A stretch of 64,000 nucleotides of DNA from Desulfobacteraceae bacterium (lineage in GTDB: Bacteria > Desulfobacterota > Desulfobacteria > Desulfobacterales > Desulfosalsimonadaceae). The notes beneath the pieces are model-generated. The model worked only from the letters and a program-made list of their open reading frames with translations. It was not told the origin of the DNA and did no database searches. The position numbers were made by a program, and so were the translations under genes. The DNA lies in contig JAIPDT010000001.1 in NCBI GenBank assembly GCA_021737545.1, positions 7,093 through 71,092 of the forward strand, read 5' to 3'. This document shows, piece after piece, positions 9,512 to 29,428 of this stretch (positions are counted from its first letter, which is position 1; every line of letters starts with the position of its first letter).

Positions 9512-11857
9512 TTATTTCCCTAAAGCAATGCGCAGGACCTGGCGCATCTTGTCCACAAAATGAAACCTGATTTCTTCTGTTACATTTTGGGGGATATCTT
9601 CCATGTCCTTTTCGTTGAATTTGGGAAGGATAATGCTTTTGATCCCGGCCCTGTGGGCCGCCAGGGCCTTTTCCTTGACACCGCCCACAGGCATGACCTG
9701 GCCGCGCAGAGTGATTTCTCCGCTCATTGCAAGATCCTTTGAGGTGGGGGTATTTGTTAGCAGTGATGCAATGGCTATAAGCAGAGTGACCCCGGCAGAG
9801 GGACCGTCTTTCGGCACCGCTCCCGCAGGCACGTGAACATGCAGGTCATGGGTGTCAAAAAAGTTTTCGTCTATTTTTAACACTCCGGCGTTGGCCCGGA
9901 TATAACTCAATGCAGCGTTTGCAGATTCCTTCATAACCTCTCCGAGCTGACCGGTCAGGGTAAGTTTGCCGTTTCCCTTCATTGCCGTGGCCTCGACAAA
10001 CAAAACGTCTCCGCCCGCTTCCGTCCAGGCCAGTCCCATAACCACACCGGGCGTGGATACCCGTTTTTTTATCTCGTCAAAGGAAAAGCGGACGGGTCCC
10101 AGATATTCCCTGACTTCCCGCATGCCTACTTTGACGAATTGCGCTTCGCCCCTTGCGATTTTGGCGGCCACCCCCCGGCAGACTGATGCGATCTCGCGTT
10201 CCAGGTTGCGTAGTCCGGCCTCCCTGGTGTAGCCGGTTATGATGTGCTTGACCGCGCCCTTGGTGATCCTGATGTTGTCAGCCTTCAGCCCGTGGCCACC
10301 TCTTTGCCGGGGGATGAGAAACCGGGTTGCGATCCTGGTCTTTTCCTCCTGGGTATAGCCGGAGAGTCTCAGCACTTCCATGCGGTCGAGCAGGGCCGGA
10401 GGGATGGTATCCAGAATATTGGCAGTAGTTATAAACATGACCTTTGACAGGTCAAAAGGCGCGTCTATGTAATGATCTGTAAATGAATAGTTCTGCTCGG
10501 GGTCAAGCACCTCCAGCAGGGCGGAAGAAGGATCGCCGCGAAAGTCCGCTCCTACCTTGTCTATTTCATCGAGCATGAAAACCGGATTTTTCGAGCTTGC
10601 ACGCCGGAGGCCCTGAATAATCCTGCCGGGCAGGGCCCCCACATAGGTGCGGCGGTGTCCCCTGATTTCGGCTTCATCCCGAATGCCGCCAAGGGCCACC
10701 CTGACAAACCTGCGTCCAAGGGCCCGGGCAATGGAATTTCCAAGCGATGTTTTTCCCACACCGGGCGGACCTACAAAACACAGAATCGGGCTTTTGGTTT
10801 CGGGGTTGAGTTTTAGGACCGCCAGATATTCGAGTATACGGCGCTTGGCTTTTTCCAGCCCGTAATGATCGTTTTCAAGTACTTTCTCGGCGCTTTCCAG
10901 ATCCAGGTTGTCCGGGGTGTTTTCGTTCCAGGGCAGCGCGGTCATCCAGTCCAGATACGTAAGAGCAACAGTATATTCCGCAGAAGACGGGTGCATTCTG
11001 GCAAGACGGTTTAATTCACGCTCTGCCTCCTTGTGGGCTTCTTCGGGCAGATTTTTTTCATAAAGCCGGGTTCGGTATTCCTCCACCTCGCTGCCGGATT
11101 CGTCTATTTCTCCAAGTTCCTGCTGGATGGCTTTTAATTGCTGGCGCAGATAGTACTCGCGCTGGTGCTTTTCCATATCGCCCTTAACCTGGGACTGGAT
11201 CTTGTTACCGATTTCCAGGATATCGATCTGGTAGCTGACCATGCGGGTGACCTTTTCCAGGCGCTGCCGTATGTCAAAAAGCTCGAGCACCTCCTGTTTT
11301 TCCTTTGTATCAGAATCAATTGTGGAGGTGATCATGTCTGCAAGTGTGCCGGGCTCTTCTATGGATTTTGCCATGGAGCCCATCTCGTCGGGGAGCGAAG
11401 AAGACATCTGCACCACTTTTTGGTACTGGGAGACCAGGTTGGCCATCATGGCCTCGATTTCCTTGTCGCGGTTTTCTTCTTCTTCTACATTCTCAATGCG
11501 GGCTTTAAGATAAGGATCTGTCTCCGTGTATTTCTGAATATTAAAGCGGCCTATGCCCTGGAGCAGGATCTGCGCCTTGTTTTCCTCAGTTTTGGCCATT
11601 TTAAGGATCACGGCGCTGCAGCCCACGGTATAAAGGTCTTCAGGACCATACTTTGATTCGGACCCGGTGTGCCTGGTTGCCATCGCCCCCACAAGGCGGT
11701 CTCCGGACATTGCCTCGTCTATGAGCTGAATGGATTCCTGCTGCATGACTATCAGCGGCAGGACCATTTTCGGAAACAGAACAACATTGTGAAGGGGTAG
11801 AATCGGCAATTCTTCCGGTATTCTGTCAAGAGACACGGTCTGCTCGTCTTGTGCCAT
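9512..11857 (-). CDS. lon: ATP-dependent Lon protease
   Basis: 781 aa. It has a LON N-domain, AAA+ Walker [10 protein letters not shown], and a protease domain with PKDGPSAGV and [12 protein letters not shown]. Confidence 0.95.
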
Positions 11858-11903
11858 GTAATTCGCCTCCGCTTCTTGGTTGCCGGGGACGTGCCGGCTC
11901 TGT

Positions 11904-12344
11904 CTATTCTGTATTTATAGGAATGTTTTGCCTGGTCCTGTGCGGCAGTTTTGTAATTTCTACATAGAGAAAGCCGTTTTTATATTTGGCGGTTATGTTT
12001 TCGGTATCCACCGGCGTCTTTAGGTGCAAAATTCTTTCAAACGGCCCGTACTGGATTTCCGCCAATCTGTATCTTCCGTTTGCAGCCGGCGGTGCACCGG
12101 TGCGTTTGCCGGAAATACGGATGGCCCGAGGGCTTACTTCCAGCTCCAGGTCCTCCTTTTCTACACCAGGGATTTCGGCTGTAACATAGATTTTTTCGGA
12201 TGTTTCGTAAATATCTAACTGCGGTTTCCAGGTGGTTTTGGAAAAGGCAAACATGGGGCTCATGGACTGGAACAGCTCTGACATGCTCCTGCCCGGGCCT
12301 GAATCGTCAAAGTCATTGGTAAATCGGATCTTGATGTAATCCAT
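11904..12344 (-). CDS. Hsp20/alpha-crystallin small heat-shock protein
   Basis: 146 aa. It has an alpha-crystallin domain (PQLDIYETSEKIYVTAEIPGVEKEDLELEV..; NGFLYVEITK). It lies 46 nt upstream of lon. Confidence 0.85.
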   Translation of the reverse strand: MDYIKIRFTNDFDDSGPGRSMSELFQSMSPMFAFSKTTWKPQLDIYETSEKIYVTAEIPGVEKEDLELEVSPRAIRISGKRTGAPPAANGRYRLAEIQYGPFERILHLKTPVDTENITAKYKNGFLYVEITKLPHRTRQNIPINTE

Positions 12345-12400
12345 CAGCCGGCTCCCGGGGATTTGAAATTGATTCGGTAAACAATAATGTTGATTAATTT

Positions 12401-12429
12401 ATTATAACACCCGGTTTCAGATTTGTAAA
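12401..12429 (-). promoter_or_regulatory. Candidate sigma70-type promoter for hsp20(-lon)
   Basis: The minus strand reads TTTACA-N17-TATAAT. The plus-strand tgtaaa is at 12424-12429 and attata at 12401-12406. It lies about 55 nt upstream of the hsp20 start. Confidence 0.4.
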
Positions 12430-12433
12430 GATT

Positions 12434-13294
12434 TCAGGGCCCGGCCGGCACGGTTTGAGCCGATTGGCCGATCATCCAGGCGATACCTATGCCTCCCATG
12501 AATGAGTGCCGGGTCTCCACCAGAGGGCTATCGGAAAAGACCGCACCGGAAAGATTGTCATACCGCGCAAACATACCGATCCACAGATTGGAAAACTTTC
12601 GGCTGGCAGACAACAGCACACAGCTTCCGCTGTAGCCGCCCTCTGGCCGGTAAGCGGGCCTCTCCTTTGTGGCATATTGGGGTTTTACTTCGTAATAGTA
12701 GGCATGATATTCTTGATCGGCAAAGATGGGGCCGATAACAGCCCCCACGCTCCATTTGCCGAAAATATCCGTGAAATCGATGTTTAACTGAGGATGCGCC
12801 TTCCAGCCTATGTGATCCAAAAAAGTCAAATCTGAAGTAAAAACCGCGCGCACCGGCATCCGCAGCCGCATCCTGATGTTTTTGCCTTTATGGAGCAAAT
12901 AATTTATCGAGGGGCCGAACTCTCCTACGGGATCGAGATCAGGCATGCCTTCGCGAACATTGCCTTCTTCGCTGGCCGCGGGTATGGCCCCGTCGGCGCT
13001 CAAATCTAAGCGCAGCCTGGGAGTTTCATATAACAGGCCCCTGATGCCTTCACGGTCCACCCTGAGAAAATCGCCGCGGTAAACCACATAAGGCATGGGC
13101 ACCAGGTAGAATTCCTGGGTCTGCGAACCACGGTAAGAAGGCATGGTAAGTGGTGCCACTCCCATGCCGAGCTCCCACAGCGGCACCTCACCGGATTTCC
13201 CGGAGGATCCGGCCAGGGCTGGCTGCGCGTAGAATGCGATTAAGAAGACAAAAGCGAATACAAAAATGCAGCTCAAGAATTTGTGTGCTGTCAT
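12434..13294 (-). CDS. MipA/OmpV family outer-membrane protein
   Basis: 286 aa. It has a signal peptide (FLIAFYAQPALAG). Alternating beta-strand pattern and motifs (PSYRGS..Y.V.P.PYVVYRGDFLRVDREGIRG) are typical of MltA-interacting MipA. Confidence 0.7.
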   Translation of the reverse strand: MTAHKFLSCIFVFAFVFLIAFYAQPALAGSSGKSGEVPLWELGMGVAPLTMPSYRGSQTQEFYLVPMPYVVYRGDFLRVDREGIRGLLYETPRLRLDLSADGAIPAASEEGNVREGMPDLDPVGEFGPSINYLLHKGKNIRMRLRMPVRAVFTSDLTFLDHIGWKAHPQLNIDFTDIFGKWSVGAVIGPIFADQEYHAYYYEVKPQYATKERPAYRPEGGYSGSCVLLSASRKFSNLWIGMFARYDNLSGAVFSDSPLVETRHSFMGGIGIAWMIGQSAQTVPAGP

Positions 13295-13308
13295 GGGCGG
13301 CGTCTTTT

Positions 13309-13346
13309 AAAAAGCCCCTCCGCCGTGATTGTGGCGGAAGGGCTTT
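13309..13346 (-). terminator. Rho-independent terminator after the molybdoenzyme cluster
   Basis: 13311-13324 pairs with 13333-13346 (13 of 14 bp, GC-rich, 8-nt loop). On the minus strand it is followed by TTTTT. It lies 38 nt downstream of the small-subunit stop. Confidence 0.55.
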
Positions 13347-13383
13347 ATATTGCTCTTTTCTTTGTTGTTGCAGGCAGCGGCGG

Positions 13384-14205
13384 TTAAAGTTCCATGGGGA
13401 TATCGCCCAGGCTCAAGTCCTTGTCGGTGACAATGTCCTCGATGGTTTTGTGCGCCTTGCCTTTTTCAATGGACAGGTTGTAGCTTCTGTTATCCTTTAG
13501 CCCGTGGAACCAGAAGTCGCCGAAGTTGTCGGTTTCGGCTGTAAAGGATTCTTTGGATTGAGCGTCTTTGAGCGTGCACTTGGCTCCGATGACAACTTCT
13601 TTTTCCTTTGGATCGTAAACCGTGCCGCCAACAAATTTCTTTGGCAGGTTTTTGTAGTAGACCCGCGATTTTGTGCCCGCCTCGGGATTGAGAAGCTCGG
13701 CTTCGGCAATGAAGTCCTTAAAGTCTTTTTCTTCTCCGAACTGCAGGGCAGCGGTAGGACAGTTATCCACGCAGCGCGGAACAGACCATTCTTCCGGATC
13801 ATTGTCAAGCAGATGGGCGCATCCGGTGCATTTCTGAGCGATATTAAGATCCTCGTTGAAAAATATCGCATCATGCGGGCATGCATCTTCGCACAGCTTG
13901 CATCCGGTGCACTTTTCCGGGTCGATAATAACGAGTCCGTCATCTCGCTTATGAATCGCGCCTACATCGCACGATGCAATACACGGGGCATCATCGCAGT
14001 GATGGCACATTTTTGGGAGATACGTTATTTTTACTTTCGGCACCTGCCCGCGTACCATCTCGGTAATCCCGAGCCAGAACTGACCGGTTTCGGGCTGGGG
14101 CTTGGCATAAGGTGTCCAATCATTTCCTACGTGTTCGTCCTTGCATGCAATCTGGCAGCAGTAGCAGCCATTGCATACTGACAGGTCAATATAAAAGGCT
14201 TTCAT
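13384..14205 (-). CDS. Iron-sulfur small subunit, pyrogallol-phloroglucinol transhydroxylase (BthL)/resorcinol hydroxylase family
   Basis: 273 aa. It has four Cys clusters (CNGCYCCQIAC; CHHCDDAPCIASC; CTGCKLCEDACP; CTGC..CVDNCP). A C-terminal beta-sandwich-like extension follows (GGTVYDPKEKEVVIGAKCTL..). Its start overlaps the large-subunit stop (TAATG). Confidence 0.75.
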   Translation of the reverse strand: MKAFYIDLSVCNGCYCCQIACKDEHVGNDWTPYAKPQPETGQFWLGITEMVRGQVPKVKITYLPKMCHHCDDAPCIASCDVGAIHKRDDGLVIIDPEKCTGCKLCEDACPHDAIFFNEDLNIAQKCTGCAHLLDNDPEEWSVPRCVDNCPTAALQFGEEKDFKDFIAEAELLNPEAGTKSRVYYKNLPKKFVGGTVYDPKEKEVVIGAKCTLKDAQSKESFTAETDNFGDFWFHGLKDNRSYNLSIEKGKAHKTIEDIVTDKDLSLGDIPMEL

Positions 14206-16832
14206 TATTTGCCTCCTTTCTCTATCCAGGCGTCGAAGCGCAGGCCTGACGCCGGGTCGTATTCTCGTTCAAAGGCATCGGGATAGTCCCGCTTCCATTG
14301 ATCCATCATATCTCCGGTAACCCGGGTGACTTCGACAAGGTAACCGCTGGTGGCCTGTCCCACACAGCGTTTGGAGGTAATCCATTCGCCTGAAATCGTA
14401 TTGATGGCGCCGCCGCGGTCCAGTTTTCCGGGTATTATGGGATCGTGTCTTGCGCCGTGGTCCACATATGCAACACCGGGCATCACTCGCTCCCAGACCC
14501 GTGCGCCGCAGAGAACAATTCCGCGCTCGTTGTGCACCATAACGATGTCACCCATCTTGATGCCGCGTTTTTCAGCGTCGTCAGGATGGATCCAGACCGG
14601 TTCATACATGTAGCCGTCCCAGCCCTTGACCTTGCAGGTAATTACCTCCCGGCTCCAGGGGATGTCATCTGCCTGCGAGTGTACCCGCCAGCGGCCGTGG
14701 TTGGACATGAGCAGTAGCGGATAGGATTGAGCGCGCCAGCTGGAAATTCGCTCATCATGCATTTCGCTTTTTTCGATCCACTTGGGAATTGGCGGACGTT
14801 CCTCGTCGCACGGATAATGCTTGGCAATGCGCTCAGAGTAGAATTCCAGCTTCCCGGTTGGCGTGGGCAGCGGGTTTTTCTCCGGATCATCATAGAAAGG
14901 CCGAAGGCCGGGGGGATCCTCTTCCCAATCATCGGCGGTAGGCAGAACGACATACTGCTTTTTGACGAAATCTTTCCAGTCGATAAGCTGGTTTAGCTCC
15001 ATGTTGTTAAAGACTTCCTTCTGAAGATCCTCGATTGTCTTGCCGCCTTCTGTGTATTCATTCTCTTTGCCCAGCTTTTTGGCAATTTCCAGTACTGCCT
15101 CATAGTCGCTCTTGGATTCGCCCACCGGTTTGACGGCCTGGTTCTGGAGCATGACGCTGTGATGCTGGGTACCCTGACGGGTATTTGTTACAATATCATC
15201 GACTTCCAGGGTGGTATTGGTCGGCAGAATTATATCCGCATACAGGCAATCGTTTTCCAGCCAGGGGTGCTGTGCGAGTATAAACTCGATTTTTGGATCG
15301 CGTTCCGCGATAATGGTCTCGTTGCCGCAGTTCCAGCATGTAATACGGCAGGGAGTATCAGTCCACATCATGCGGATTTCGGTTCCGCCATCTTTTTCAT
15401 CAATCGGGTAATTGTATTCCACGAATTGGTCGTCCACCATTTCTTCGATTCCGCCGGTACCCCAGAATTTCAATGGTGGATCAAGTATGGCCTTGTGTAT
15501 CAGAGTTTTAGGAATCAATTGCTTGCCCCATGCCCTGATGGTGGTCTGAGTGGGTTTGGTGAGACGCTCCGGCAACTGGGGGTTAAAAAAGCGGGTGCTC
15601 TTTAGCATCTGAGCGCGCGGCATTCCGCCGTAGCTGATCTGCGTCTGGTGAACTCCCGGGCCTCCGAGTCCCTGCATGCCGAGCAGTATGCACTCAAGGC
15701 GTGCCGGTTCATGAGAATAGGGGCCTCTGAACATGGAGCCGCCGAAGTAGTGGGCAATCGAAGTCGTATTTTTGGCAAATTCCCGGGCCAGCGCCTTTAT
15801 TGTCCATTCGGGAACTCCGCATTTTTTTGATGCCCATTCAGGTGTTTTGGGGATATCGTCTTCTTCGCCCATAACATAGGCTTCAACCTTGTCCATGCCG
15901 ATAGCGTGGGTTCTGATATATTCCTTATCGTATGTGCCTTCTTTTAACCACATGTAAATGATGGCTAGCTGCATGGCTGCATCGGTATTAGGCAGAACAG
16001 GAATCCACTTGTCTGCATGTACTGCTGCGCCGTAATTTAAATCCGGGCAGATATATATTTGTTTAATGCCGCACTGGGTCCAGAAATAGGAGAGGCGGCT
16101 TGCAAACTGGCCGACAAAGCCCCATGGAGTAGTTTCGGGGTCACAGCCCCAGAACAGCATCATGTCGCAGTTCTCGGTCATGTCCTTAACACAGTTATCC
16201 GAAGGATCCATCATGCCGACAAGTCCCTGGCCCCAGACGTGTTTGGACCCCCAGTAAAATCCTTCCCAGCTGTCCGGGTTGCGGACCTGCTGGGTAAATC
16301 CACCCAACATCTCAAGCAGTCGTGCCTGGTGTCCATGCGGGGTGTTGATGGTTTTGCACTCGCCGTGTCCGTCGCCCTGAGCCAGAATTGCCAAAGGACC
16401 GTAACTTTTAATGATGCGTTTTATCTCGGAGGCAATAATATCTGTTGCTTCTTCCCAGCTTATTCTTACGTACTTGCTTTTACCGCGGTTCTGGGTGTTG
16501 CGCTCTCCGTTGGGATCCCAATCCACTCGTTTCATAGGATATTTAATCCGGTTGGGAGAGTAGGTCCGTTTTTTATAAGAAAGAGACCACGGAGAAGGCA
16601 TACCCTTGAAATTGGATTCCAGGGTATGTCCGTTGCGCTTGAATTGCCACGGGTTAAAGGATTTGCGGTCAAATTTCCAATCAAAATGCATTGGCCTGAT
16701 GCGCACGATCTTGCCGTTTTTAACATCCACACAGCTCGGATCACATCCGCCCAGCAGGCCGCCGAGGGCCAGCCCCCGGACCACGGTCTTATCAGCCTTG
16801 GCGTCGACCTTGGCTTTGTCCTCTTTTGCCAT
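14205..16832 (-). CDS. Molybdopterin (bis-PGD) large subunit, pyrogallol transhydroxylase (AthL)/resorcinol hydroxylase family
   Basis: The ORF is open from TTG at 16877. ATG at 16832 is preferred because AAGGAGGA lies 4 nt upstream. As I recall the P. acidigallici AthL sequence, it shares these motifs: RIKYPMKRVDWDPNGERN, ISWEEATDIIASEI, NPDSWEGFYWGSKHVWG, MLFWGCDPETT, LKEGTYDKEY. There is no twin-arginine signal. Confidence 0.8.
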   Translation of the reverse strand: MAKEDKAKVDAKADKTVVRGLALGGLLGGCDPSCVDVKNGKIVRIRPMHFDWKFDRKSFNPWQFKRNGHTLESNFKGMPSPWSLSYKKRTYSPNRIKYPMKRVDWDPNGERNTQNRGKSKYVRISWEEATDIIASEIKRIIKSYGPLAILAQGDGHGECKTINTPHGHQARLLEMLGGFTQQVRNPDSWEGFYWGSKHVWGQGLVGMMDPSDNCVKDMTENCDMMLFWGCDPETTPWGFVGQFASRLSYFWTQCGIKQIYICPDLNYGAAVHADKWIPVLPNTDAAMQLAIIYMWLKEGTYDKEYIRTHAIGMDKVEAYVMGEEDDIPKTPEWASKKCGVPEWTIKALAREFAKNTTSIAHYFGGSMFRGPYSHEPARLECILLGMQGLGGPGVHQTQISYGGMPRAQMLKSTRFFNPQLPERLTKPTQTTIRAWGKQLIPKTLIHKAILDPPLKFWGTGGIEEMVDDQFVEYNYPIDEKDGGTEIRMMWTDTPCRITCWNCGNETIIAERDPKIEFILAQHPWLENDCLYADIILPTNTTLEVDDIVTNTRQGTQHHSVMLQNQAVKPVGESKSDYEAVLEIAKKLGKENEYTEGGKTIEDLQKEVFNNMELNQLIDWKDFVKKQYVVLPTADDWEEDPPGLRPFYDDPEKNPLPTPTGKLEFYSERIAKHYPCDEERPPIPKWIEKSEMHDERISSWRAQSYPLLLMSNHGRWRVHSQADDIPWSREVITCKVKGWDGYMYEPVWIHPDDAEKRGIKMGDIVMVHNERGIVLCGARVWERVMPGVAYVDHGARHDPIIPGKLDRGGAINTISGEWITSKRCVGQATSGYLVEVTRVTGDMMDQWKRDYPDAFEREYDPASGLRFDAWIEKGGK

Positions 16833-16890
16833 AATATCCTCCTTGCTTGTTTCGGGCTTTACCATAGAAAGCCTCAAAGTCTAAGTTAAA

Positions 16891-16919
16891 GGCATCCTCT
16901 TTTTTTAAAAGAGGATGCC
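16891..16919 (-). terminator. Perfect 13-bp stem-loop between the two molybdoenzyme genes (candidate partial terminator or processing site)
   Basis: ggcatcctctttt (16891-16903) pairs perfectly with aaaagaggatgcc (16907-16919). On the minus strand it is followed by TTTAACTT. It lies 14 nt after the stop at 16933. Confidence 0.4.
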
Positions 16920-16932
16920 CATCACCCTTGAA

Positions 16933-19146
16933 CTAGTCTAAATCATCAACAGTTTTCTGAACAGTTCCGAATTCCTCTGTCTGGAAAACGTTTTCCTGCA
17001 ATTCTTCTTCGGTACATTTTCTTACCCTGCACAGCAGACAGGTTAGATCCGGAGAGCCGTACATCGGATCCAAATGGTTGTTATTGGTAAGTACGTTAGG
17101 ATTGGAGATAAACAGCCCGTGGTAATTGTTCGCCGGTTCTTCCGGATAGAACCAGTTTGCAGTGGCCATCAGCATTCCCCTTAGAATACCCGGAAAGGTT
17201 CGGCACTTTTGCCGGATCCTGCCGCGCGGGGTTTCGATCCAGATCCAATCGCCGTCTGAAATCCCGTATTTGGCGGCTGTTTCAGGATGCATCTGACACA
17301 TGGGATATTCCATGAAGCTTCTCAGCCATGGAATATTCCGGTATTGGCCCAGGAAATAAAACGGCTGGCGAAAACCGCTGCTCATTACAACAGGGTATTC
17401 TTTAAACAACTCCGGGGTGCGGTACGGACTTTCACCCGGCTCCCTGAAAACCGGCAGGGGATCATAGCCAAGCTCTTCGAGTCGTTTGGAGTAAAATTCA
17501 AATTTGCCGGTTGCAGTCGGAAATCCTCCGCCTTTGCGCCAATAATCGGTCTTGTATTTATAGTATATCTGGTCCTGGCCCCAGCAGCCGTTAACGATCT
17601 TCTCGCTGAATTCCTTCCAGTTCATGTTGCCGTCATGGCCCTTGCGGACCTGATAGTCCAGCATTTCCTCCATGTTGTCAAACCAGTGTTCGGGTACAAC
17701 GCGTTTACCGATTTCATTGAAAATCCATGCATCGGCCTTGGCTTCGCCCGGCGGATCAACGACCTTGTTGTGAGCGCTGATGAAAAACCGCGGGTGCATG
17801 TCATAGACATCATCGATTTCAAGCCAGTGAGCCGCAGGCAGTACCATGTCTGCTGCTTCGGCCATGGGTCCCATAAACTGGTCAACTTGTACCAGGAAGT
17901 CTATTTTTTCGATTGCTTCGGCAACCTCCTTGGTGTTGGCCATATGCACAATTTGCTGCCCGCCAACGCTTATCCAGACATGAATGGGGGCCTCACCTCC
18001 GCCCAGGATTGTTTTGACCATGGTGTCGGGGTTGCAGGTACGTGCCGCACCCATTTTGTATTTATCTACACCGACAATTTTGCTGCGCATCTCTTCGGTC
18101 AGCGGGAGTTCCAAAAAGAAGTCTTCGATTAAGCCGGTGTCAGGAAGAACCCAGCTGCACATGCTGCCCGGGCGTTCAATGTTGCCGGTCAGCCCCATCA
18201 GGCAGGTGATGGCTCTTAAGGTGTGGCCGCAGTTGGCCTGTCTTTCAAGCGAACTTCCAACCTGGATGGTGCCCGGCGTGTCGATTGCCCATAATCGGGC
18301 CGCCTCGATGATTTTTTCCTTGGGTATCCAGGTGACTTCTTCAGTTTTTTCAGGAGTCCACTCCTTGACCCTTTCTCTTAGCTCTTCAAAGCCGTAAGTC
18401 CAGTTCTCGACAAATTCCTTGTCCCAAAGCTCTTCATTGAATATGACATTCATCATGCCCATAGCCAGGGCACAGTCGGAGCCCGGGCGCGGCTGCAGCC
18501 ACAGCGTCGCACGCGTTGCATAAGCACTGGCTCTTGGGTCAATTATGATAAGGTTCTTGCAGTAATCCAGGGACTGTATAAACCAGTTGCACATCTCAGA
18601 GTCGGCGCTGGAGATCTCAAGCTGCTTGGCCCACATTATGTTGGTTTTGGGGAACTCGCCTCCCCATCCGTGGTAATCGCAGTAAAGCCTGCCGTATCCG
18701 GTGACCAGTCCGTATAGGCCCAGACGCGGGCTGTGGCATACATAGCCCGGGCTGATGACGTTGGCGGTTCCCAGCGACCGGGCCAGGCGGTGTATATAGC
18801 GGTTATAGCCGCGGCCGGTGCCCTGGGAGACCGCAACGGATTCCTTGCCGTATTTTTCCTGGCTTTCCTTTATCTTTTCAGCAATGGTGTCCAGGGCCTC
18901 ATCCCAGGAAATCCTTTTCCATTTGCCTTCGCCCTTTTCTCCGACCCTTTTCATGGGGTATTTAAGCCGGAATGGGTTGTCAATGTGCTGTATACTGGAT
19001 AAACCTTTGGAACACATGGTCCCGCGGGTCAGTGAGTCGGGGTTGCCTTCTATATGGATTGGAACGCCATCCTCCACTGTCACTTTGACTCCGCAGCCGC
19101 CGTGGCAGCTTTTACAGGTTGAATAAATTACTTTTCTTTCGCCCAT
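16933..19146 (-). CDS. Molybdopterin/tungstopterin oxidoreductase catalytic subunit, acetylene-hydratase-like branch
   Basis: 737 aa. It has an N-terminal [4Fe-4S] motif CKSCHGGC..x26..C. Segments such as LAMGMMNVIFNEELWDKEFVENWTYGFEELRERV and GKFEFYSKRLEELGYDPLPVFREP resemble acetylene hydratase as I recall it. AAGGAGGA is the RBS. An in-frame TAA lies 6 codons upstream, so no Tat leader is possible. Confidence 0.75.
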   Translation of the reverse strand: MGERKVIYSTCKSCHGGCGVKVTVEDGVPIHIEGNPDSLTRGTMCSKGLSSIQHIDNPFRLKYPMKRVGEKGEGKWKRISWDEALDTIAEKIKESQEKYGKESVAVSQGTGRGYNRYIHRLARSLGTANVISPGYVCHSPRLGLYGLVTGYGRLYCDYHGWGGEFPKTNIMWAKQLEISSADSEMCNWFIQSLDYCKNLIIIDPRASAYATRATLWLQPRPGSDCALAMGMMNVIFNEELWDKEFVENWTYGFEELRERVKEWTPEKTEEVTWIPKEKIIEAARLWAIDTPGTIQVGSSLERQANCGHTLRAITCLMGLTGNIERPGSMCSWVLPDTGLIEDFFLELPLTEEMRSKIVGVDKYKMGAARTCNPDTMVKTILGGGEAPIHVWISVGGQQIVHMANTKEVAEAIEKIDFLVQVDQFMGPMAEAADMVLPAAHWLEIDDVYDMHPRFFISAHNKVVDPPGEAKADAWIFNEIGKRVVPEHWFDNMEEMLDYQVRKGHDGNMNWKEFSEKIVNGCWGQDQIYYKYKTDYWRKGGGFPTATGKFEFYSKRLEELGYDPLPVFREPGESPYRTPELFKEYPVVMSSGFRQPFYFLGQYRNIPWLRSFMEYPMCQMHPETAAKYGISDGDWIWIETPRGRIRQKCRTFPGILRGMLMATANWFYPEEPANNYHGLFISNPNVLTNNNHLDPMYGSPDLTCLLCRVRKCTEEELQENVFQTEEFGTVQKTVDDLD

Positions 19147-19181
19147 TTGGTTCCTCCTTAATTATATAACACCTTGGAGCT

Positions 19182-20129
19182 CTACATTACCGGAGCTCTG
19201 GTAACAACAGGTCTGTAGATGCCGACCTTTAATACACAGTACTTCAACGCAAAAGCCCCTATTGTATGGGAAATAATAGCTATAATCAGAATTTCGGGGA
19301 TATTGGTTTTTAGCACGAATATGCTGATTAGCGAGAGCGCAAAAGGTATTATTATACCCAGGAAAATTACGCCGATCCAAAAGGATAAGGCCACACGCCC
19401 CACAAGTAATTCTCTTACTGAAAGCTCGCCTATAGTTGACTGGTATGATGCACTGATCAGGTAGCTTCCGATTAGAATCGCGTTGCCGATAAGCGCCCAT
19501 TGGCTGGCGATCTCGAGTGTATGAAAATCAACCCCGCCTGTTACAAGACCAACGCCCATGATAAGTGCCAGACCGTCAGCGATTCCCATAATCACAAAAA
19601 CTATGGGCAGCAGACCTGTATTCCAAAATGGTATGCTTTTGCAGTAACTCATCATGAATCCGCAGTAAATACCTGTCAAAAGAGCAAACAGACCCGCCAG
19701 AAACCGCATGATCCAGTCTATAACCGTTAATGTGCCGACTGCTGAAGCCGCCACCAGGCTATGATCCAGCACGAAGGTTGTAACAAGCTGAATCAGTGCA
19801 AAAATAGAAAATACGGTGGTAAAAAACATGCCTCGCGCGATCCATGAGTGCCATGACTTGGTAAAAGGCGGAATCGCCCTCCAGAATCGCCACGGTCTGC
19901 CGAGGTAGAAAAAGTGAAAGGGCAGTTTGAGAAATACGATAATAAGCCAACCCACCAGTGCTCCCCACCAGTGGTCCATAACCACAGATACCAAGTACAT
20001 CCCCATGCCCAGAGCTGAAAACACTTCAGCCATCCAGATCAGCAGCCCCTGGCCTTCGATCCACTCGGTCTGCTGTGTAGGCTTTGTCATCCATTCATGG
20101 GGTGTAATCCATTGACGACCTCCTTGCAT
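19182..20129 (-). CDS. NrfD/PsrC-type integral membrane quinone-interacting anchor
   Basis: 315 aa and very hydrophobic, with about 8 predicted helices. It sits between the FeS and catalytic subunits, as in Psr/Ttr-type complexes. Confidence 0.75.
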   Translation of the reverse strand: MQGGRQWITPHEWMTKPTQQTEWIEGQGLLIWMAEVFSALGMGMYLVSVVMDHWWGALVGWLIIVFLKLPFHFFYLGRPWRFWRAIPPFTKSWHSWIARGMFFTTVFSIFALIQLVTTFVLDHSLVAASAVGTLTVIDWIMRFLAGLFALLTGIYCGFMMSYCKSIPFWNTGLLPIVFVIMGIADGLALIMGVGLVTGGVDFHTLEIASQWALIGNAILIGSYLISASYQSTIGELSVRELLVGRVALSFWIGVIFLGIIIPFALSLISIFVLKTNIPEILIIAIISHTIGAFALKYCVLKVGIYRPVVTRAPVM

Positions 20130-20139
20130 TTTTTGCCTC

Positions 20140-20916
20140 CTATTCTTCTTCTTTTCTGCCTTCCTCGATCAGCCGTTTAGACCTGGGATCCACGGTACTC
20201 TTTTGCTGGATGTGAATGCCTGTCATGGCATGCTCGGGAGCTTTATTATCCTTGCCGCCCACTTCCCCGTCTATATAATAAATTGATGGATCCGTGCCCA
20301 GTACGCGCTGAAGCTGGAAAGCATTCTTTCTGGCGATTAACCTGGAAACATTGCTGTTGGGATCATCTATGTCGCCGAACGTCAAAGCTCTTGCCTGGCA
20401 GGTGTTAACGCATGCCGGGGTGGCATCGCGGTCAATTCCGGGCGTCAGGCCGTTTGCCAGGCCATAATCGATTTTTTCCACGCAAAAGTTGCATTTTGTG
20501 GTGGTACCTTTTTGATGGGGATACAGCTCCTCCCCCTTTTTCTCGTATCGTGTCTTCGGGTAGCCAGGAAAATAACCAGGGTCCCGCCATGAGAAAATAA
20601 ACGTGCGGTTCTGGTAAGGGCAAGCGATTACGCAGTAACGGCAGCCGATGCACTTGTTTGCATCTATGGTAACAATACCGTCCTTGCGCTGGGAGGTCGC
20701 GCCTGTGGGGCAGACGTCCACGCATGGAGCATCCGCGCATTGGTTGCAGCGCACCGGAAAAGTTGTTATGTCTGCGGCACCTCTTTCTTCTGTTTCATAT
20801 GCAGCCAGTTTGACCCATGTAACCCAAAGCGGCAGAAAGTGCTCAACCCTGCAGGCGGCCACGCAGCCGTGGCATCTGGTGCACTTTGTCAGATCGATCA
20901 CCATTCCCCATCTCAT
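20140..20916 (-). CDS. 4Fe-4S ferredoxin-type electron-transfer subunit (PsrB/NrfC/TtrB-like)
   Basis: 258 aa. It has four Cys groups (CTRCHGCVAAC; CNQCADAPCVDVCP; CIGCRYCVIACP; CNFC..CVNTC). There is no signal peptide, and an in-frame TAA lies 14 codons upstream. Confidence 0.8.
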   Translation of the reverse strand: MRWGMVIDLTKCTRCHGCVAACRVEHFLPLWVTWVKLAAYETEERGAADITTFPVRCNQCADAPCVDVCPTGATSQRKDGIVTIDANKCIGCRYCVIACPYQNRTFIFSWRDPGYFPGYPKTRYEKKGEELYPHQKGTTTKCNFCVEKIDYGLANGLTPGIDRDATPACVNTCQARALTFGDIDDPNSNVSRLIARKNAFQLQRVLGTDPSIYYIDGEVGGKDNKAPEHAMTGIHIQQKSTVDPRSKRLIEEGRKEEE

Positions 20917-20957
20917 GATTTGACTCTCCTTGATTAAGTTTTTTATTACAGCGACTT

Positions 20958-20986
20958 ATATATATTGCCGGCCGGCTGTACCTCAA
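20958..20986 (-). promoter_or_regulatory. Candidate sigma70-type promoter of the molybdoenzyme cluster
   Basis: The minus strand reads TTGAGG-N16/17-TATATA, about 45 nt upstream of the ATG at 20916. The RBS AAGGAGAG follows. Confidence 0.3.
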
Positions 20987-20997
20987 ATTGGGAAATC

Positions 20998-21024
20998 GTA
21001 TTTTTTACATGTAATTTTACATAC
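20998..21024. promoter_or_regulatory. Promoter-proximal TTTTACAT repeat / TTACATGTAA palindrome (candidate operator)
   Basis: The sequence is gtattttttACATGTAAttttacata. It holds a perfect 10-bp palindrome TTACATGTAA at 21005-21014. TACAT-N7-TACAT lies at 21006-21022. Confidence 0.35.
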
Positions 21025-21226
21025 AATTTTTATAAACATAAATCAACCCAATTTTTCCGTTAAAAAAAAATAACAGTTCAGCCAGTATGATATATATAAA
21101 AAAATCACAAAAGCCTGCCGATGTCAAGAGCCCTGTCGAATTTTTTGTTTTGAGTTAATTTTGTTTTCCCGGAACATAATGTATCTATTATATATTTAAT
21201 AATAGTCGTATTATGGTTTTTTGTCC

Positions 21227-21258
21227 AGTATTTTACATGCAGTATTTTACATGTAATT
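21227..21258. promoter_or_regulatory. Distal tandem AGTATTTTACATG repeat with second TTACATGTAA palindrome
   Basis: The 14-bp unit AGTATTTTACATG(C/T) occurs twice in tandem (21227-21240, 21241-21254). The palindrome TTACATGTAA lies at 21247-21256, 242 bp from the proximal copy. Confidence 0.35.
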
Positions 21259-21289
21259 TTTTACGGCGCTTTGCAATTAAGATGGTCAT

Positions 21290-23139: not shown

Positions 23140-23860
23140 TTGGAATTTTCCTTTGCATTAAGTAAAGTCGTTTTCAATTTTAAAAAATCTCTTGTAGCAC
23201 CGGAGAAAGGGGTATTCAAGTGAATCGTTTTTTCGGCAGCAATTCTCGTGATAATTCCTGTTGAATATATTGTATCCCCCAAAAAAAGGGCAACTAAAGA
23301 CACCCGGGGATTGAATGTTTGATATCGAATTGCTCGAGCATCAAAGTACCTACAAGAAAAAGGTCGGTGCAGGAAAACCCGGGCCAAACAGCATTTATGC
23401 GGACTTACAAGCAGCAGCCCCGGCTGGAAAAACGTTTCAACACCACAAAGTCCGTATTAGAGGTTGCTCCGGTTTTTCTGGAAAAATCATCGTCACCTGT
23501 TTAGAAACGCCCATTTGTCACAAATTTTTGTCAAAGAGCAACGAAGGCGTGCAATTCATTTAGAAACTTTTTTCCATTCATGATCTGGCGGTAAAAGTGC
23601 GCGAGGCGATTGAGCAGGAATAGGTGTATTGTCAAGAACTTCCCTGAAAAGAGAAGAAATCATGCTTATCATCAGAGCCCGGCAGGTTTCGGGTAAAAGG
23701 TAAGTCGCCTTGAACAGGCAGAGAGCCTGTGAGACGCCTTTGAGCATTCCCCGCCGGGCAAAATCCTTGCCATAAAATACAGTATTTCTGAGACTTCTGG
23801 AAATTACTTTAAAAAGGATTTTCAGAAGGACCCAACCGCAGTTCAAAAATGTTTTTGAAA

Positions 23861-24070
23861 TTAACTCTTTTCTCGCAAAACATTTTTGGCTTGAGGGCCA
23901 CGATCGGTTTCCTCGATATCGAAACTGACACGTTCGCCTTCATTCAGGGTCTTGAACCCTTCCTGATTTATACCGGAAAAATGGACGAAAACGTCCTGCT
24001 CTCTTTCTTCATCTTTAATAAAACCAAAACCCTTCTTTTCATTGAACCATTTCACTGTGCCTTGTGCCAA
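23861..24070 (-). CDS. cspA: Cold-shock protein (CspA family)
   Basis: 69 aa. It begins [25 protein letters not shown], carrying the RNP1/RNP2 motifs. Confidence 0.9.
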
Positions 24071-24800
24071 AATTCAACCCCCCTTTGATAAATAAACAGA
24101 TGTCAGCAAATAATTAATCATAATCAATTCTCCCCCACCACAAACAATCTGTCAAGAAGCCATCTAAAATTTGTCAATAGCATTTAGAACAGTTAGATTC
24201 TCTCCTATAGGTCACAGCCATGCGCCCAATTCGCTCAAGGCTGTTGAGGCCATCAAATAGGGCTCGTTATTTCGGCAGGCCAGTTTGCGGGTTTCTTGCA
24301 AGAGCCTCAGCAACGACCAGTTGGCAATAGGTGCTGACCCCTGTATACAATAATATCCGGAGACATGCCCCCACATATGCAGCAGGGTGTTGCGAATACC
24401 GCCGGCAGTGGGCGGACGCCGGGATACCTCGATTAATTGGCAGGCCAGCGCCGCGAAATTTTCCCGTTTCCGACACCGGGCCACCCTTCCGCCAATTTCC
24501 CGGTAAGCGTTGGGGTCACGTGCCTGGATGGAATATTTGTGATGACTCCATAACTGCTGGGTTGTTTTTGGCAGTGGAATCCGCCCCGGAGAACGGAGGC
24601 TATATTTTTCAGCTTGATATAATTAAAAATATAAAAAATCTATACATTTGATCAGTGTATTGGCCAAAATTTCCGGGAAAACAAAACCGCAATCAGGTTA
24701 TCAGCAAGGCGCGGTATCCGTGTATTGTTGAAAAATCAGGATAAATGTTTAAAAATATATTTTAAACCTTGGATTTATTAATAAAAAGGAGAATGAAATC

Positions 24801-26280: not shown

Positions 26281-26835
26281 TCAGTCGATGTATGTTACAG
26301 AGCCCTTTCTGGTGCGCTCCCCGGCAGTGAATTTATTTTCGGCTGCCGGGTAACCGACAACTATCGCGCACTGAAGGGAATAATTATCAGGGATCCCCGC
26401 TTCCTGCGCCAGATCACGGTTTTCCTCACCATTTATTCCCAGTTTGGTGGAAGCAAGAAAACACGAACCCAAATCCAGTTCGGTGGCTTGAAGAAGCATA
26501 TTTTCTGCGGCGACTGCCGTGTTGATAGCGCTGTTGGGGTTATCGGCCGGCCCGGAGAGCAGGATCAGCACCGGCGCGTCATAGAGAGGCTGGTATCCCG
26601 GCAGAGACGCCCTTTGCTGCAAAAATTCCACCCCCGAGTTAAGCATTGCCTTATGTGTCCGGTCGTTGATCTTTTGCCGAAGCTCGGGATTTCTAACAAC
26701 CGACATCTGAAATTCCCCTGCGTTGGGCGCCCATCTGCCGGCCTCTATAATTTTTCCAAGCTCGTCCTCAGAAACCGGCTTATCCAGGTACGCCCTTATA
26801 CTCTTTCTCTTTGCAATTGCATCTGAAACATCCAT
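26281..26835 (-). CDS. Nitroreductase-family flavoprotein
   Basis: 184 aa. It begins KRKSIRAY...P.S.E.L..I.EAGRWAPNAG, typical of the NADH-oxidase/nitroreductase fold. Confidence 0.75.
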   Translation of the reverse strand: MDVSDAIAKRKSIRAYLDKPVSEDELGKIIEAGRWAPNAGEFQMSVVRNPELRQKINDRTHKAMLNSGVEFLQQRASLPGYQPLYDAPVLILLSGPADNPNSAINTAVAAENMLLQATELDLGSCFLASTKLGINGEENRDLAQEAGIPDNYSLQCAIVVGYPAAENKFTAGERTRKGSVTYID

Positions 26836-26906
26836 GATTTTTCCTCCTCTACTTTAATCTGTTTTTACTTCCTGATTTTCACAATATGATCAATAATGCG
26901 CCGGAT

Positions 26907-28139: not shown

Positions 28140-28234
28140 GGTTTGATCTCTGTTTTCTTTTTACCTGAAGTTGATTCAATTTTTATAAACTGTTATATTA
28201 ACATTTTATTTATAACCAGTAAAGGTCGTTTATT

Positions 28235-29428
28235 TTGAGCAGACGCGCATACGCAATTATTATAGCCGCCTTTTTTACCGTTTCCATCGCTTATTCCATC
28301 AGATACGGCTACGGCATGCTGTTGCCTGAAATGCTGCCTGCATTGGATATTTCGAAAACCCAGGCAGGTACAATTTTTGCGATCTATTTTGTGGTTTATA
28401 CTGTTTTTACTCCGGTAATGGGGAGTTTATCCGACCTGTATAACTACCGTTTTATTCTTACCGTCTTTACCGCCATTTTGGGATTGGGCGCCTTGCTGAT
28501 GACCTCTGTTACGGGTTTTGCCCAGGCCAGCCTGTTTTTCCCCCTCGCCGCCTTGGGGCATGCCGCATGCTGGGCCCCTGTTGCTTCCCTGGTTCAAAAA
28601 TGGGTGCCCAACGAAAAAAGGGGAATGATGCTTTCCTTTGTAAGCATAGGAATCGGACTTGGTATTCCCGTGTGGGGAACGCTCCTGCCTTTTATTGTCG
28701 CGGCATCCGGATGGCGGGCCGGGTGGCTGGCGATGGGATCGTTTGCCGTTGTGGTGGCTTTAATGAACTTTATCCTTGTTCGCAACCCGGTCGGTTTCAG
28801 AGAGCAAATGGTATCTGTGCGGGAAAGGGCCAAGTTTATATTAACAATATATAAAGCACTTCTCAAAGACAAACGGTTCTGGATTGTGGGCACGGCTTAT
28901 TTGCTGGTGGGTTTTAATGTTTTGGTTCCTTTTACCTTTCTGCCGGTTTATGCAAGGGAAGCGCTGCATTTTGATTATGCCACTTCCACCCGCTTTGTAA
29001 GTCTTATCGCTTTTTTCGGCATTGCCGGTCAATTAACCCTTGGGCCCTGGTCCGATCGAATGGGCAGAGTAAATGTATTGATGTTGTGCGGTGCTATAAT
29101 GGGAATCGCTTGCCTCGGGATGAGTTTTTCCCCCAATAAATGGTGGTTGTACGGGATGACGAGTTTTTTCGGCCTGGCCTACGGTGCTGTATGGCCGGTT
29201 TATGCCGCGGCTGCCTCCGATTTTTTCCCCAGCAACCAGACCGGAAGCGTGGTCGGGCTTTGGACGGTTTTTTTGGGTCTGGGCTCCATCGTCTCGCCGG
29301 TGGTTTGCGGCTGGACCATCGATATAACCGGGGTGTATACGTGGGCCTTTATTTTGGGGCTGGCAAGCGGCCTGGCTTCGACTTTGTGCCTGGCAAGAAC
29401 ACGGGCACATGAAACTTACCGGGATTAA
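28235..29428 (+). CDS. MFS transporter
   Basis: 397 aa with about 12 hydrophobic helices. An MFS-like loop motif (GSLSDLYNYR) is present. The start is TTG. Confidence 0.75.
   Translation: MSRRAYAIIIAAFFTVSIAYSIRYGYGMLLPEMLPALDISKTQAGTIFAIYFVVYTVFTPVMGSLSDLYNYRFILTVFTAILGLGALLMTSVTGFAQASLFFPLAALGHAACWAPVASLVQKWVPNEKRGMMLSFVSIGIGLGIPVWGTLLPFIVAASGWRAGWLAMGSFAVVVALMNFILVRNPVGFREQMVSVRERAKFILTIYKALLKDKRFWIVGTAYLLVGFNVLVPFTFLPVYAREALHFDYATSTRFVSLIAFFGIAGQLTLGPWSDRMGRVNVLMLCGAIMGIACLGMSFSPNKWWLYGMTSFFGLAYGAVWPVYAAAASDFFPSNQTGSVVGLWTVFLGLGSIVSPVVCGWTIDITGVYTWAFILGLASGLASTLCLARTRAHETYRD

Follow-up and report, generated by a model that had tools for sequence, protein, structure and literature searches.

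The gut catechol dehydroxylases form the clade closest to acetylene hydratase (AH); they act reductively and can support growth as terminal reductases (PMC7028382). Two forms have been described: enzymes with a twin-arginine translocation (Tat) leader, an iron–sulfur (FeS) protein and a membrane anchor in Eggerthella lenta, and leaderless soluble enzymes with a small FeS protein in Gordonibacter (PMC7028382). Uncharacterized dehydroxylase homologs are predicted in environmental aromatic-degrading anaerobes, and the 3,5-dihydroxybenzoate cluster of Thauera contains an AH-like ‘putative dehydroxylase’, the loss of which impairs growth (PMC7028382). Here we analyze a 64,000-nucleotide stretch of a Desulfobacteraceae metagenome-assembled genome (MAG; assembly GCA_021737545.1, contig JAIPDT010000001.1, positions 7,093 to 71,092), hereafter the window, in which five consecutive minus-strand genes encode an FeS protein (FeS1), an NrfD-type membrane anchor, an AH-like catalytic subunit (AHL), a large subunit resembling pyrogallol-phloroglucinol transhydroxylase (TH) and termed THL, and its FeS partner (FeS2). 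We put the probability at roughly one half that this operon encodes two cooperating cytoplasmic molybdenum/tungsten (Mo/W) enzymes for the anaerobic conversion of polyhydroxyaromatics: a quinone-linked dehydroxylase, formed by the FeS1-NrfD-AHL triad, and a redox hydroxylase, formed by THL-FeS2, possibly joined in an electron-looped hydroxyl shift.

The second half of the operon also has described relatives beyond TH itself. The resorcinol hydroxylase RehLS/RhLS of Aromatoleum anaerobium and the 3,5-dihydroxybenzoate hydroxylase DbhLS of Thauera aromatica AR-1 are two-subunit enzymes of the TH family that use water to hydroxylate the ring and depend on an electron acceptor (PMC10084136; PMC10100899); these two papers mention no NrfD anchor. 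Their pathways are oxidative, lead to hydroxybenzoquinone and belong to nitrate reducers; the context of the operon described here points to phloroglucinol. The TH-family and AH-like enzymes of Thauera AR-1 would represent the same family pairing as the window operon.

Membrane complexes of the Psr, Phs, Ttr, Nrf and Dms types are assembled from the same modules as the triad—a MopB catalytic subunit, a four-cluster FeS subunit and an NrfD/PsrC anchor with eight transmembrane (TM) helices—and PsrA, PsrB and PsrC are first- or second-ranked structural relatives of the window proteins. These complexes, exported by the Tat route, are oriented towards the periplasm, and their anchor termini lie on that side, whereas the window system is leaderless and shows the opposite charge bias. 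The order of genes for the FeS, anchor and catalytic subunits (B-C-A) is also that of ttrBCA. A closer parallel in orientation is the sulfite:quinone oxidoreductase SoeABC, the one NrfD-anchored molybdoenzyme proposed to face the cytoplasm, whose anchor SoeC has been argued to be inverted (PMC8076601). The preliminary description of the window had treated a cytoplasm-facing NrfD complex as a departure from the established pattern, which overstates its uniqueness in view of this proposed precedent. The likeness to SoeABC lies in the cytoplasm-facing arrangement and the inverted NrfD-type anchor, both predictions for the window system; the catalytic clade and the substrate probably differ, and the gene order is A-B-C as opposed to B-C-A.

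Compared with the catechol dehydroxylases (Dadh, Hcdh and Cadh of E. lenta, Dodh and Cldh of Gordonibacter), which like AHL are AH-related enzymes of the bis-molybdopterin guanine dinucleotide type and whose targets are ring hydroxyls of aromatic compounds, the triad fits neither layout: it has no Tat leader, yet it includes a four-cluster FeS subunit and an NrfD anchor, predicted to be inverted. It differs further in its B-C-A order, its TH-family partner and its uncultured environmental hosts. Judged from sequence, the triad would be a third architecture in the clade, leaderless yet anchored. Every module family is known already, as are the proposed inverted NrfD precedent and the anticipated environmental AH-like dehydroxylase homologs. 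The novelty lies in how they are combined: an AH/dehydroxylase-type enzyme without a leader is held by an NrfD anchor and conserved across phyla, it is repeatedly linked to a TH-family enzyme with four clusters, and it is placed by its neighborhoods upstream of the phloroglucinol pathway in abundant uncultured anaerobes.

Leaderless subunits and the orientation of the anchor

All five open reading frames (ORFs) are present in the window at the positions first described, and the intergenic gaps of 10, 35, 55 or 100 (depending on the THL start) and −1 nt proved exact on recheck, the last being a 1-nt overlap of the FeS2 start with the THL stop. Each gene is preceded by a strong Shine-Dalgarno sequence. 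In-frame stops lie 6–22 codons 5′ of the starts (14 codons upstream in the case of FeS1), and there are no alternative starts for FeS1, NrfD, AHL or FeS2, so the exclusion of longer N-termini for FeS1 and AHL holds. THL alone can be extended, by at most 15 codons; because AAGGAGG is found 7 nt upstream of the ATG at 16832, this codon is the most likely start. No RR motif occurs in any start version of the five proteins, and the absence of Tat leaders from the soluble subunits, proposed for the window proteins, extends to approximately 70 orthologs. In these, the FeS1 N-terminus MRWGMVIDLxKC is conserved and coincides with the first cluster motif, AHL begins with a few residues followed by TCKSCHGGCG, and THL begins with a Lys-rich tail of 15–30 residues lacking twin arginines.

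The family relationships of FeS1 agree with a leaderless electron-transfer subunit. It belongs to Fer4_11/Fer4_7 in Pfam, has ArrB and PsrB as its best PDB matches, and aligns to the DsrO model only from position 43, i.e. past the Tat leader. Its 16 cysteines are present in 69–70 of 70 orthologs.

Direct and profile sequence searches detected no relative of the anchor in the PDB. Its AlphaFold2 model (pLDDT 77) finds PsrC (2vpw_C) as the best PDB fold match in Foldseek, with a probability of 1.0 and a TM-score of 0.62, and the hidden Markov model of the anchor family is colinear with TM2–TM8 of E. coli NrfD. Lysines and arginines (K+R) were counted in homologous loops, one face comprising the N-terminus, loops 2-3, 4-5 and 6-7 and the C-terminus. 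Across the anchor family (n=71) this face carries a mean of 15.4 K+R residues (range 12–19) versus 0.2 (range 0–2) on the other; the window anchor has 13 versus 1. The same faces carry 5 versus 13 in E. coli NrfD and 5 versus 8 in E. coli DmsC, and the anchor is accordingly predicted to be inverted relative to both. Near-invariant loop residues are concentrated on the K/R-rich face (19 of 20, with one on the other). Since both termini of PsrC are on the P-side (PMC8076601), this conserved, K/R-rich face is topologically the one on which PsrB docks.

A predicted inversion of the anchor would place its functional face, FeS1 and AHL in the cytoplasm. The cytoplasm-facing orientation, a central proposal of the preliminary description, is well supported by the family-wide absence of leaders, the positive-inside rule and the position of the conserved residues; the alternative in which the anchor would force its partners into the periplasm finds no support in the charge distribution. 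We strongly infer that FeS1, NrfD and AHL form one complex turned towards the cytoplasm, and that electrons pass between this complex and the quinone pool on the cytoplasmic side of the membrane.

Active sites of the two catalytic subunits

Among PDB entries, AHL matches AH from Pelobacter acetylenicus best (2e7z, 318 bits), followed by PsrA (206 bits, 7e-60). AHL and AH share the domain order, the [4Fe-4S] cluster, Lys48, the Cys ligand and the cytoplasmic location, at an identity of only 33%. AH is a monomer that is not known to have FeS or anchor partners. Both pterin-binding domains of AHL score strongly in Pfam, and its FS0 cysteines (C11, C14, C18 and C45), Lys48 and the metal-ligand cysteine C137 are invariant. 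The residues that distinguish the hydratase are a different matter. The catalytic Asp13 of AH, which adjoins the second FeS cysteine, corresponds to His15 in the window AHL and in all of 60 close family members. Acetylene is bound in AH by a hydrophobic pocket reported to comprise Ile14, Ile113, Ile142, Trp179, Trp293 and Trp472; AHL has Gly, Gly, His, Ala, Val/Ile and a deletion, respectively, at these positions. We therefore reject AHL as an acetylene hydratase (EC 4.2.1.112), and the hydratase function that the preliminary description had allowed for is dropped. Because the metal-ligand cysteine and the FS0 site are kept while Asp13 and the pocket are lost, AHL reads as a redox-competent Mo/W enzyme with a polar pocket. 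It probably falls within the AH/catechol-dehydroxylase clade, the known dehydroxylases having been compared by description only, and is 36–38% identical to an Adlercreutzia homolog with a Gordonibacter-type layout.

THL (Pfam AhtL-like_1st, Molybdopterin and Molydop_binding) and FeS2 (Fer4_11 and CarboxypepD_reg) share with TH of Pelobacter acidigallici (4v4c; EC 1.97.1.2) a Ser-ligated Mo site, the absence of FS0, the C-terminal beta-barrel of the small subunit and the cytoplasmic location. The Mo-site residues Ser175 (the Mo ligand), His144 and Asp174 of TH are conserved in 27/27, 27/27 and 24/27 family members, and Trp176 is kept in THL as well. The differences affect other parts of the enzyme. 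Tyr404 and Tyr560, reported to be the second-substrate/catalytic tyrosines of TH, lie in loops that are deleted in the window THL and in 19/27 and 24/27 family members, respectively, and are kept only by TH-like paralogs of 36–43% identity. Arg153 of TH is replaced by Pro. FeS2 has four complete Cys groups where the beta subunit of TH has three clusters: the fourth-cluster cysteines (Cys79, Cys99, Cys102 and Cys105) occur in 28 of 30 FeS2 family members, at positions where TH beta has G, A, K and L. Unlike TH, the pair is also linked to a quinone-coupled complex. With its complete four-cluster wire and its lack of co-substrate loops, THL-FeS2 suits an electron-transferring hydroxylase of the resorcinol-hydroxylase type better than a non-redox transhydroxylase; these features are compatible with RehLS and DbhLS, which were compared by description only.

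The Lys-rich tail of THL is followed by DKTVVRALALGG, conserved in orthologs and missing from Pelobacter TH. The tail may be a vestigial chaperone-binding leader, since one locus (L003) has a gene for a NarJ/TorD-family chaperone beside a TH-like gene.

None of the five proteins scores above the curated cutoff of an NCBIfam equivalog; the best matches, all far below cutoff, are PhsA for AHL and DsrO for FeS1. The features of the operon are collected in Table 1.

Table 1. Genes and other features of the operon, with positions in the window
Feature	Position	Strand	Description
FeS1	20140-20916	minus	258 aa; 16 Cys, four [4Fe-4S] clusters; leaderless; PsrB/ArrB/DsrO-like electron-transfer subunit
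NrfD anchor	19182-20129	minus	315 aa; PF03916, 3e-20; NrfD/PsrC-type, 8-helix, quinone-interacting; predicted N-in/C-in (inverted)
AH-like (AHL)	16933-19146	minus	737 aa; catalytic subunit, Mo/W-bis-pyranopterin guanine dinucleotide (bisPGD) and [4Fe-4S]; leaderless; best PDB match 2e7z (AH), 8e-94
TH-like (THL)	14205-16832 (ATG) or 16877 (TTG)	minus	875 or 890 aa; Mo-bisPGD large subunit; no FS0, no leader; best PDB match 4v4c_A, 3e-118
FeS2	13384-14205	minus	273 aa; TH-beta-like; best PDB match 4v4c_B (TH small subunit), 2e-54
AHL-THL spacer hairpin	16890-16920	minus	perfect 14-bp stem, GGCAUCCUCUUUUA/UAAAAGAGGAUGCC
Intrinsic terminator at operon end	13309-13346	minus	14-bp GC-rich stem, 8-nt loop, U5
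Upstream promoter/operator region	20917-21289	minus	373 nt, AT-rich; palindrome TTACATGTAA at 21005-21014 and 21247-21256

Gene order and neighborhoods across genomes

To place the operon among its relatives, one genome per GTDB species was scanned, yielding 80 loci onto which all five window proteins were mapped. AHL has thousands of homologs; the best 120, at 70–100% identity, come from Desulfobacteraceae, Dehalococcoidia and Thermoleophilia MAGs, and all loci with an AHL identity of at least 68% derive from uncultured MAGs. The FeS1-NrfD-AHL triad occurs in invariant order in approximately 65 loci from several phyla, hosted by uncultured Desulfobacterales, Desulfatiglandales, SAR324, Chloroflexota and Actinomycetota, with AHL orthologs 68–89% identical. 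AHL is the most conserved protein of the cluster (70–89% identity across phyla). THL-FeS2 comes after the triad in 22 loci. Loci with the full five-gene order number 21 and belong to unclassified ‘Pseudomonadota’ as well as to Desulfobacterales, Desulfatiglandales and SAR324. The arrangement, as seen in these genomes, is not due to chance: it recurs in these 21 other loci and in one anchor-less variant (L040, 9158-15709), which has all genes but NrfD along with an SDR-cyclase-cyclase set (SDR, short-chain dehydrogenase/reductase). Another locus (L005, 9171-12220) has FeS1-AHL only; in both NrfD-less loci AHL directly follows FeS1 after a gap of 63–69 nt. The two halves of the operon are thus co-located in many genomes, as the preliminary description had anticipated.

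The linkage takes several forms. Four Desulfatiglans-type loci (L021:7306-14291, L022:4391-11371, L057:4593-11571 and L071:12497-19495) have two tandem THL-FeS2 pairs after one triad, the THLs being ~67% and ~66% identical to that of the window, which suggests several hydroxylase specificities per anchor complex. THL orthologs of 70–73% identity are found in the triad-bearing Chloroflexi MAGs RBG_13_51_18 and RBG_16_60_22; L089 has FeS1-NrfD-AHL-UbiA-rSAM-rSAM-methyltransferase-THL-FeS2 on one strand (rSAM, radical SAM); and in Actinomycetota the same catabolic genes are flanked by the triad and by the THL pair. In L003 a distant TH-like pair (36% identity to the window THL), accompanied by the chaperone gene mentioned above, is divergently oriented beside the triad. 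Literature searches for a characterized ortholog of the five-gene system returned only general notes and no such ortholog. The operon is real, widely conserved and uncharacterized, and belongs to uncultured anaerobes.

Duplications were observed within the family as well. An extra NrfD-family gene just upstream of FeS1 gives the order NrfD-FeS1-NrfD-AHL, with two anchor paralogs per operon, in L047:7203-8120 and L089:348-1286. Second, divergent AH-like paralogs (35–36% identity) occur within 8 kb of the triad in L053:1812-3860 and L063:5416-7611, and two separate triads are present in one MAG in the pairs L042/L061 and L056/L063. The AH-like paralogs and double triads resemble the paralog families of gut dehydroxylases.

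The preliminary description recognized a strong terminator only after the last gene. The terminal structure is indeed a terminator, folding at −29.7 kcal/mol (z = −4.3) with none of 200 shuffles folding equally well, but the perfect 14-bp hairpin in the AHL-THL spacer was missed. The latter begins 12 nt past the AHL stop, has the weak U-tract UUUAACUU as its tail, and lies in a region with a ΔG of −33.9 kcal/mol (z = −2.3); it may act in partial termination, as a processing site or in stabilizing the mRNA. Across orthologs the AHL-THL junction varies from a 40-nt unstructured spacer in some loci to a stable hairpin in others, and the triad and THL-FeS2 are therefore genetically linked and probably not strictly co-transcribed. 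Upstream of the operon, the palindrome TTACATGTAA occurs in exactly two copies, the only ones in the 64 kb, where 0.01 are expected; it is also found upstream of FeS1 in the orthologous loci L008 and L067, as the sole copy in each. A search for a sigma-54 promoter, prompted by sigma-54 activators in orthologous loci, found no consensus with two or fewer mismatches in 20917-21289.

Clustering of all flanking ORFs and assignment of their families revealed three recurrent settings. In the five-gene loci, genes for the DctPQM tripartite ATP-independent periplasmic (TRAP) transporter are found in 6–8 loci, in four of which (L012, L016, L069 and L053) they immediately precede the cluster on its own strand; IclR-SDR-cyclase-cyclase is directly upstream of FeS1 in L011 and L040. 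A TRAP transporter is reportedly also needed by the Thauera cluster. Other genes of the five-gene loci encode MoaA, a thiolase, a sigma-54 activator and an amidohydrolase of PF04909, to which the non-oxidative hydroxybenzoate decarboxylases belong. The Actinomycetota neighbors comprise SDR, BKACE, a 3-hydroxyacyl-CoA-dehydrogenase-like protein, IclR, a major facilitator superfamily (MFS) transporter, aldehyde:ferredoxin oxidoreductase and 2-oxoacid:ferredoxin oxidoreductase. The SDR, cyclase, 3-hydroxyacyl-CoA-dehydrogenase-like and BKACE neighbors are exactly the families of the published anaerobic phloroglucinol pathway, in which they act as PGR, DPGC, TfD and TAL, respectively (PMC10470551). 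With TRAP, IclR, a PGR-like SDR, a DPGC-like cyclase, BKACE and decarboxylase-family genes as neighbors, we infer that the substrates are polyhydroxylated aromatics or hydroxybenzoates whose products enter the phloroglucinol pathway; the aromatic substrate considered in the preliminary description fits these neighborhoods.

The Chloroflexota operon is very regular: FeS1-NrfD-AHL is followed by an FdnI-like cytochrome b or a FixC-like flavoprotein, a UbiA-family prenyltransferase, a radical SAM slot holding either an AhbD-like rSAM-SPASM protein or two MSMEG_0568-type radical SAM proteins, and a UbiE-like methyltransferase (L027, L031, L036, L038, L048, L050, L061, L068 and others, at about 10000-16000). 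NuoF-like genes or a Mo/W-type ABC transporter often precede it. No curated quinone or heme pathway model of NCBIfam matches this accessory set above cutoff. Canonical menaquinone (futalosine) biosynthesis was considered and rejected: the radical SAM proteins are the MSMEG_0568 ‘variant rSAM’, and the UbiA-family protein and methyltransferase score far below every Mqn/Men cutoff. The set could tailor a quinone or a heme, the latter being an equally good reading because the rSAM-SPASM protein is AhbD-like. Molybdate/tungstate-type ABC transporter genes (SBP_bac_11, permease and an ATPase with TOBE) lie just upstream of the triad in L002:5093-8062, L031 and L023, and MoaA is nearby in four five-gene loci.

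In the window itself the operon is flanked by housekeeping genes, with RecD-like helicase, RlpA, Lon, Hsp20 and MipA on one side and YchF, TatD, ThiD and MutS on the other. Genes for a nitroreductase, a flavin oxidoreductase of the Old Yellow Enzyme (OYE) family and a divergent MFS transporter are located at 26281-29428, upstream of the operon at a distance of 5–8 kb. Homologs recur in other loci, that of the OYE protein (cluster c76) close to the AH-like gene in L005 and L081, and those of the nitroreductase in L009, L055 and L067. A stretch of ~1.6 kb at 23140-24800 lacks large ORFs, and in the surrounding 22–30 kb the cumulative GC skew turns from falling to rising as the genes change from minus to plus. 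A replication origin at this flip (23–30 kb) was rejected, there being no DnaA-box enrichment or cluster and no Rfam match. Three consecutive minus-strand ORFs at 1503-4493 (162, 180 and 630 aa) belong to no Pfam family at E≤1e-5. The sole RNA gene detected in the window is a tRNA-Arg (anticodon TCT) at 29591-29667.

Proposed mechanism and its alternatives

In the mechanism we favor, the triad would be a self-standing membrane-bound complex, its NrfD subunit upside-down compared with the Psr, Nrf and Dms anchors, and the quinone/FeS-docking face, the four-cluster wire of FeS1 and AHL would all be cytoplasmic. AHL would most likely carry out the reductive removal of a ring hydroxyl, (mena)quinol supplying the electrons by way of NrfD and FeS1, and in triad-only organisms it would serve as a terminal reductase. 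THL-FeS2 would hydroxylate the ring from water in the manner of resorcinol hydroxylase, releasing two electrons. Hydroxylation (two electrons out) and dehydroxylation (two electrons in) would add up to a hydroxyl shift that turns, for instance, pyrogallol or hydroxyhydroquinone into phloroglucinol. TH depends on a tetrahydroxybenzene co-substrate; the two enzymes together would require none, and the quinone pool would act as electron buffer, source or sink. Substrates would be taken up by TRAP or MFS carriers, and the product would pass into the phloroglucinol reductase pathway. Both the reductive function of AHL and an electron loop linking it with THL-FeS2 are hypotheses. A flow from quinol to substrate, or an internal loop, appears at least as likely as the feeding of menaquinone, because the nearest characterized relatives of AHL are reductive dehydroxylases (PMC7028382). 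The hypothesis is further favored by the retention of both enzymes in the NrfD-less L040: the catalytic parts of this locus and of L005 could dispense with the quinone link, in keeping with a direct loop. It is also favored by the electron-input modules beside the triad in Chloroflexota and by our own reasoning that menaquinone is a thermodynamically poor acceptor for ring hydroxylation.

Several points weigh against this reading. The direction of electron flow is unconstrained by sequence, the topology call rests on the positive-inside rule, and any contact or electron exchange of THL-FeS2 with the triad is purely a proposal. Most loci have the triad with no adjacent THL, and in approximately 45 loci (Chloroflexota, Actinomycetota, Acidobacteriota) the triad stands alone within ±10 kb. 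A hairpin separates triad and THL-FeS2 in the window, and the Desulfatiglans-type loci have a canonical hairpin and U7 terminator at this junction. The preliminary description had joined both enzymes to one anchor; with the anchor belonging to a triad that so often does without THL, and with a hairpin or terminator often between the halves, this joining is not supported. No curated PGR or DPGC model matched the neighboring genes, the SDR and cyclase assignments being at family level only, and the 64-kb window has no transporter, regulator or phloroglucinol-pathway gene with the operon.

The preliminary description saw both enzymes as oxidative, their electrons passing through the FeS subunits and a single NrfD into menaquinone, much as in SoeABC or resorcinol hydroxylase. 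Sulfate reducers can reoxidize menaquinol, the likeness of THL-FeS2 to a redox hydroxylase with a complete wire suits this scheme, and in the Desulfatiglans-type loci one anchor would serve as many as three catalytic subunits; SoeABC, proposed as a precedent for the orientation towards the cytoplasm, is moreover an enzyme that reduces quinone (PMC8076601). The reductive character of the relatives of AHL is hard to reconcile with it, as is the presence of both enzymes in L040. The triad-only Chloroflexota, moreover, pair the triad with electron-input-type modules (FixC-like, NuoF-like) and not with terminal oxidases, and by our own estimate ring hydroxylation onto low-potential menaquinone is thermodynamically unfavorable. 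An all-oxidative system is on balance unlikely. Somewhat more improbable still is that the two halves are merely co-regulated, with THL-FeS2 a true non-redox pyrogallol-phloroglucinol transhydroxylase and the triad a separate quinol-dependent reductase acting on another intermediate or a purely respiratory enzyme. THL and FeS2 match TH far better than anything else, phloroglucinol-pathway families adjoin the cluster, and the interposed hairpin or terminator and the autonomy of the triad in so many loci are what independent enzymes would predict. Yet the window clade lacks the Tyr404 and Tyr560 loops, a fourth FeS2 cluster with which TH dispenses is conserved, which argues for real electron transfer, and the linkage of both units is kept across four phyla in different arrangements.

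Two further explanations concern the triad itself, and we consider both very improbable. One has it act on inorganic sulfur in the cytoplasm, as a SoeABC-like sulfite:quinone oxidoreductase or a Psr/Phs-like reductase. Two anchor homologs are automatically labelled ‘SoeC’ by JGI, the sub-cutoff NCBIfam matches to PhsA and DsrO point the same way, and the window host is a sulfate-reducer-type Desulfobacteraceae MAG. These matches are too far below the curated cutoffs to carry much weight, and AH outscores PsrA by a wide margin in the comparison with AHL. The triads of Chloroflexota and Actinomycetota sit among aromatic/acetogenic catabolic genes, and no sulfur-metabolism family is found among the recurrent neighbors. 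Soe enzymes, besides, have the order A-B-C and a catalytic subunit of about 950 aa, considerably larger than AHL. The other explanation makes AHL a cofactor-less scaffold like QrcB or ActB, and the triad only a quinone-coupling module for THL-type hydroxylases. It accounts for the resemblance of FeS1 to QrcC/ActB-type modules and for the loci in which one triad may accompany two THL pairs. A scaffold would hardly be expected to preserve the metal-ligand cysteine, the four FS0 cysteines and Lys48 without exception, together with strongly scoring pterin-binding domains, or to be conserved more strongly than the other four proteins. Genes for Mo/W-type ABC transporters and for MoaA recur in the neighborhood, and in most loci the triad has no THL nearby.

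Polyphenols are thought to persist in anoxic peat and sediment since oxygen-dependent phenol oxidases are inactive there, the ‘enzyme latch’ (PMC10470551). The operon or its triad core is present in many uncultured lineages that dominate such habitats, among them peatland (SPRUCE), aquifer and marine-sediment MAGs. In its widest form, the favored mechanism would let uncultured bacteria of anoxic peat and sediment (Dehalococcoidia-type Chloroflexota, Desulfobacterota and Actinomycetota) use the inverted, cytoplasm-facing NrfD complex either to respire plant polyphenols or to rearrange them: AHL would be a quinol-dependent ring dehydroxylase, in a ‘polyphenol respiration’ comparable to organohalide respiration, and AHL and the four-cluster TH-like hydroxylase together would carry out an electron-looped, co-substrate-free transhydroxylation, an undescribed route from compounds of the pyrogallol and hydroxyhydroquinone types to phloroglucinol. 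We regard this full scenario as speculative and rather doubtful as a whole. Should the triad prove to be a quinone-linked dehydroxylase, and THL-FeS2 a redox hydroxylase, they would supply missing upstream steps feeding the recently solved phloroglucinol pathway, and a respiratory electron acceptor for ‘fermentative’ Chloroflexota. The triad would also be a second, independent inverted NrfD-type respiratory complex, useful for testing how NrfD proteins couple to the membrane potential. The operon also offers specific candidates, open to assay, for the catechol dehydroxylases whose occurrence in the environment was predicted from work on gut bacteria.

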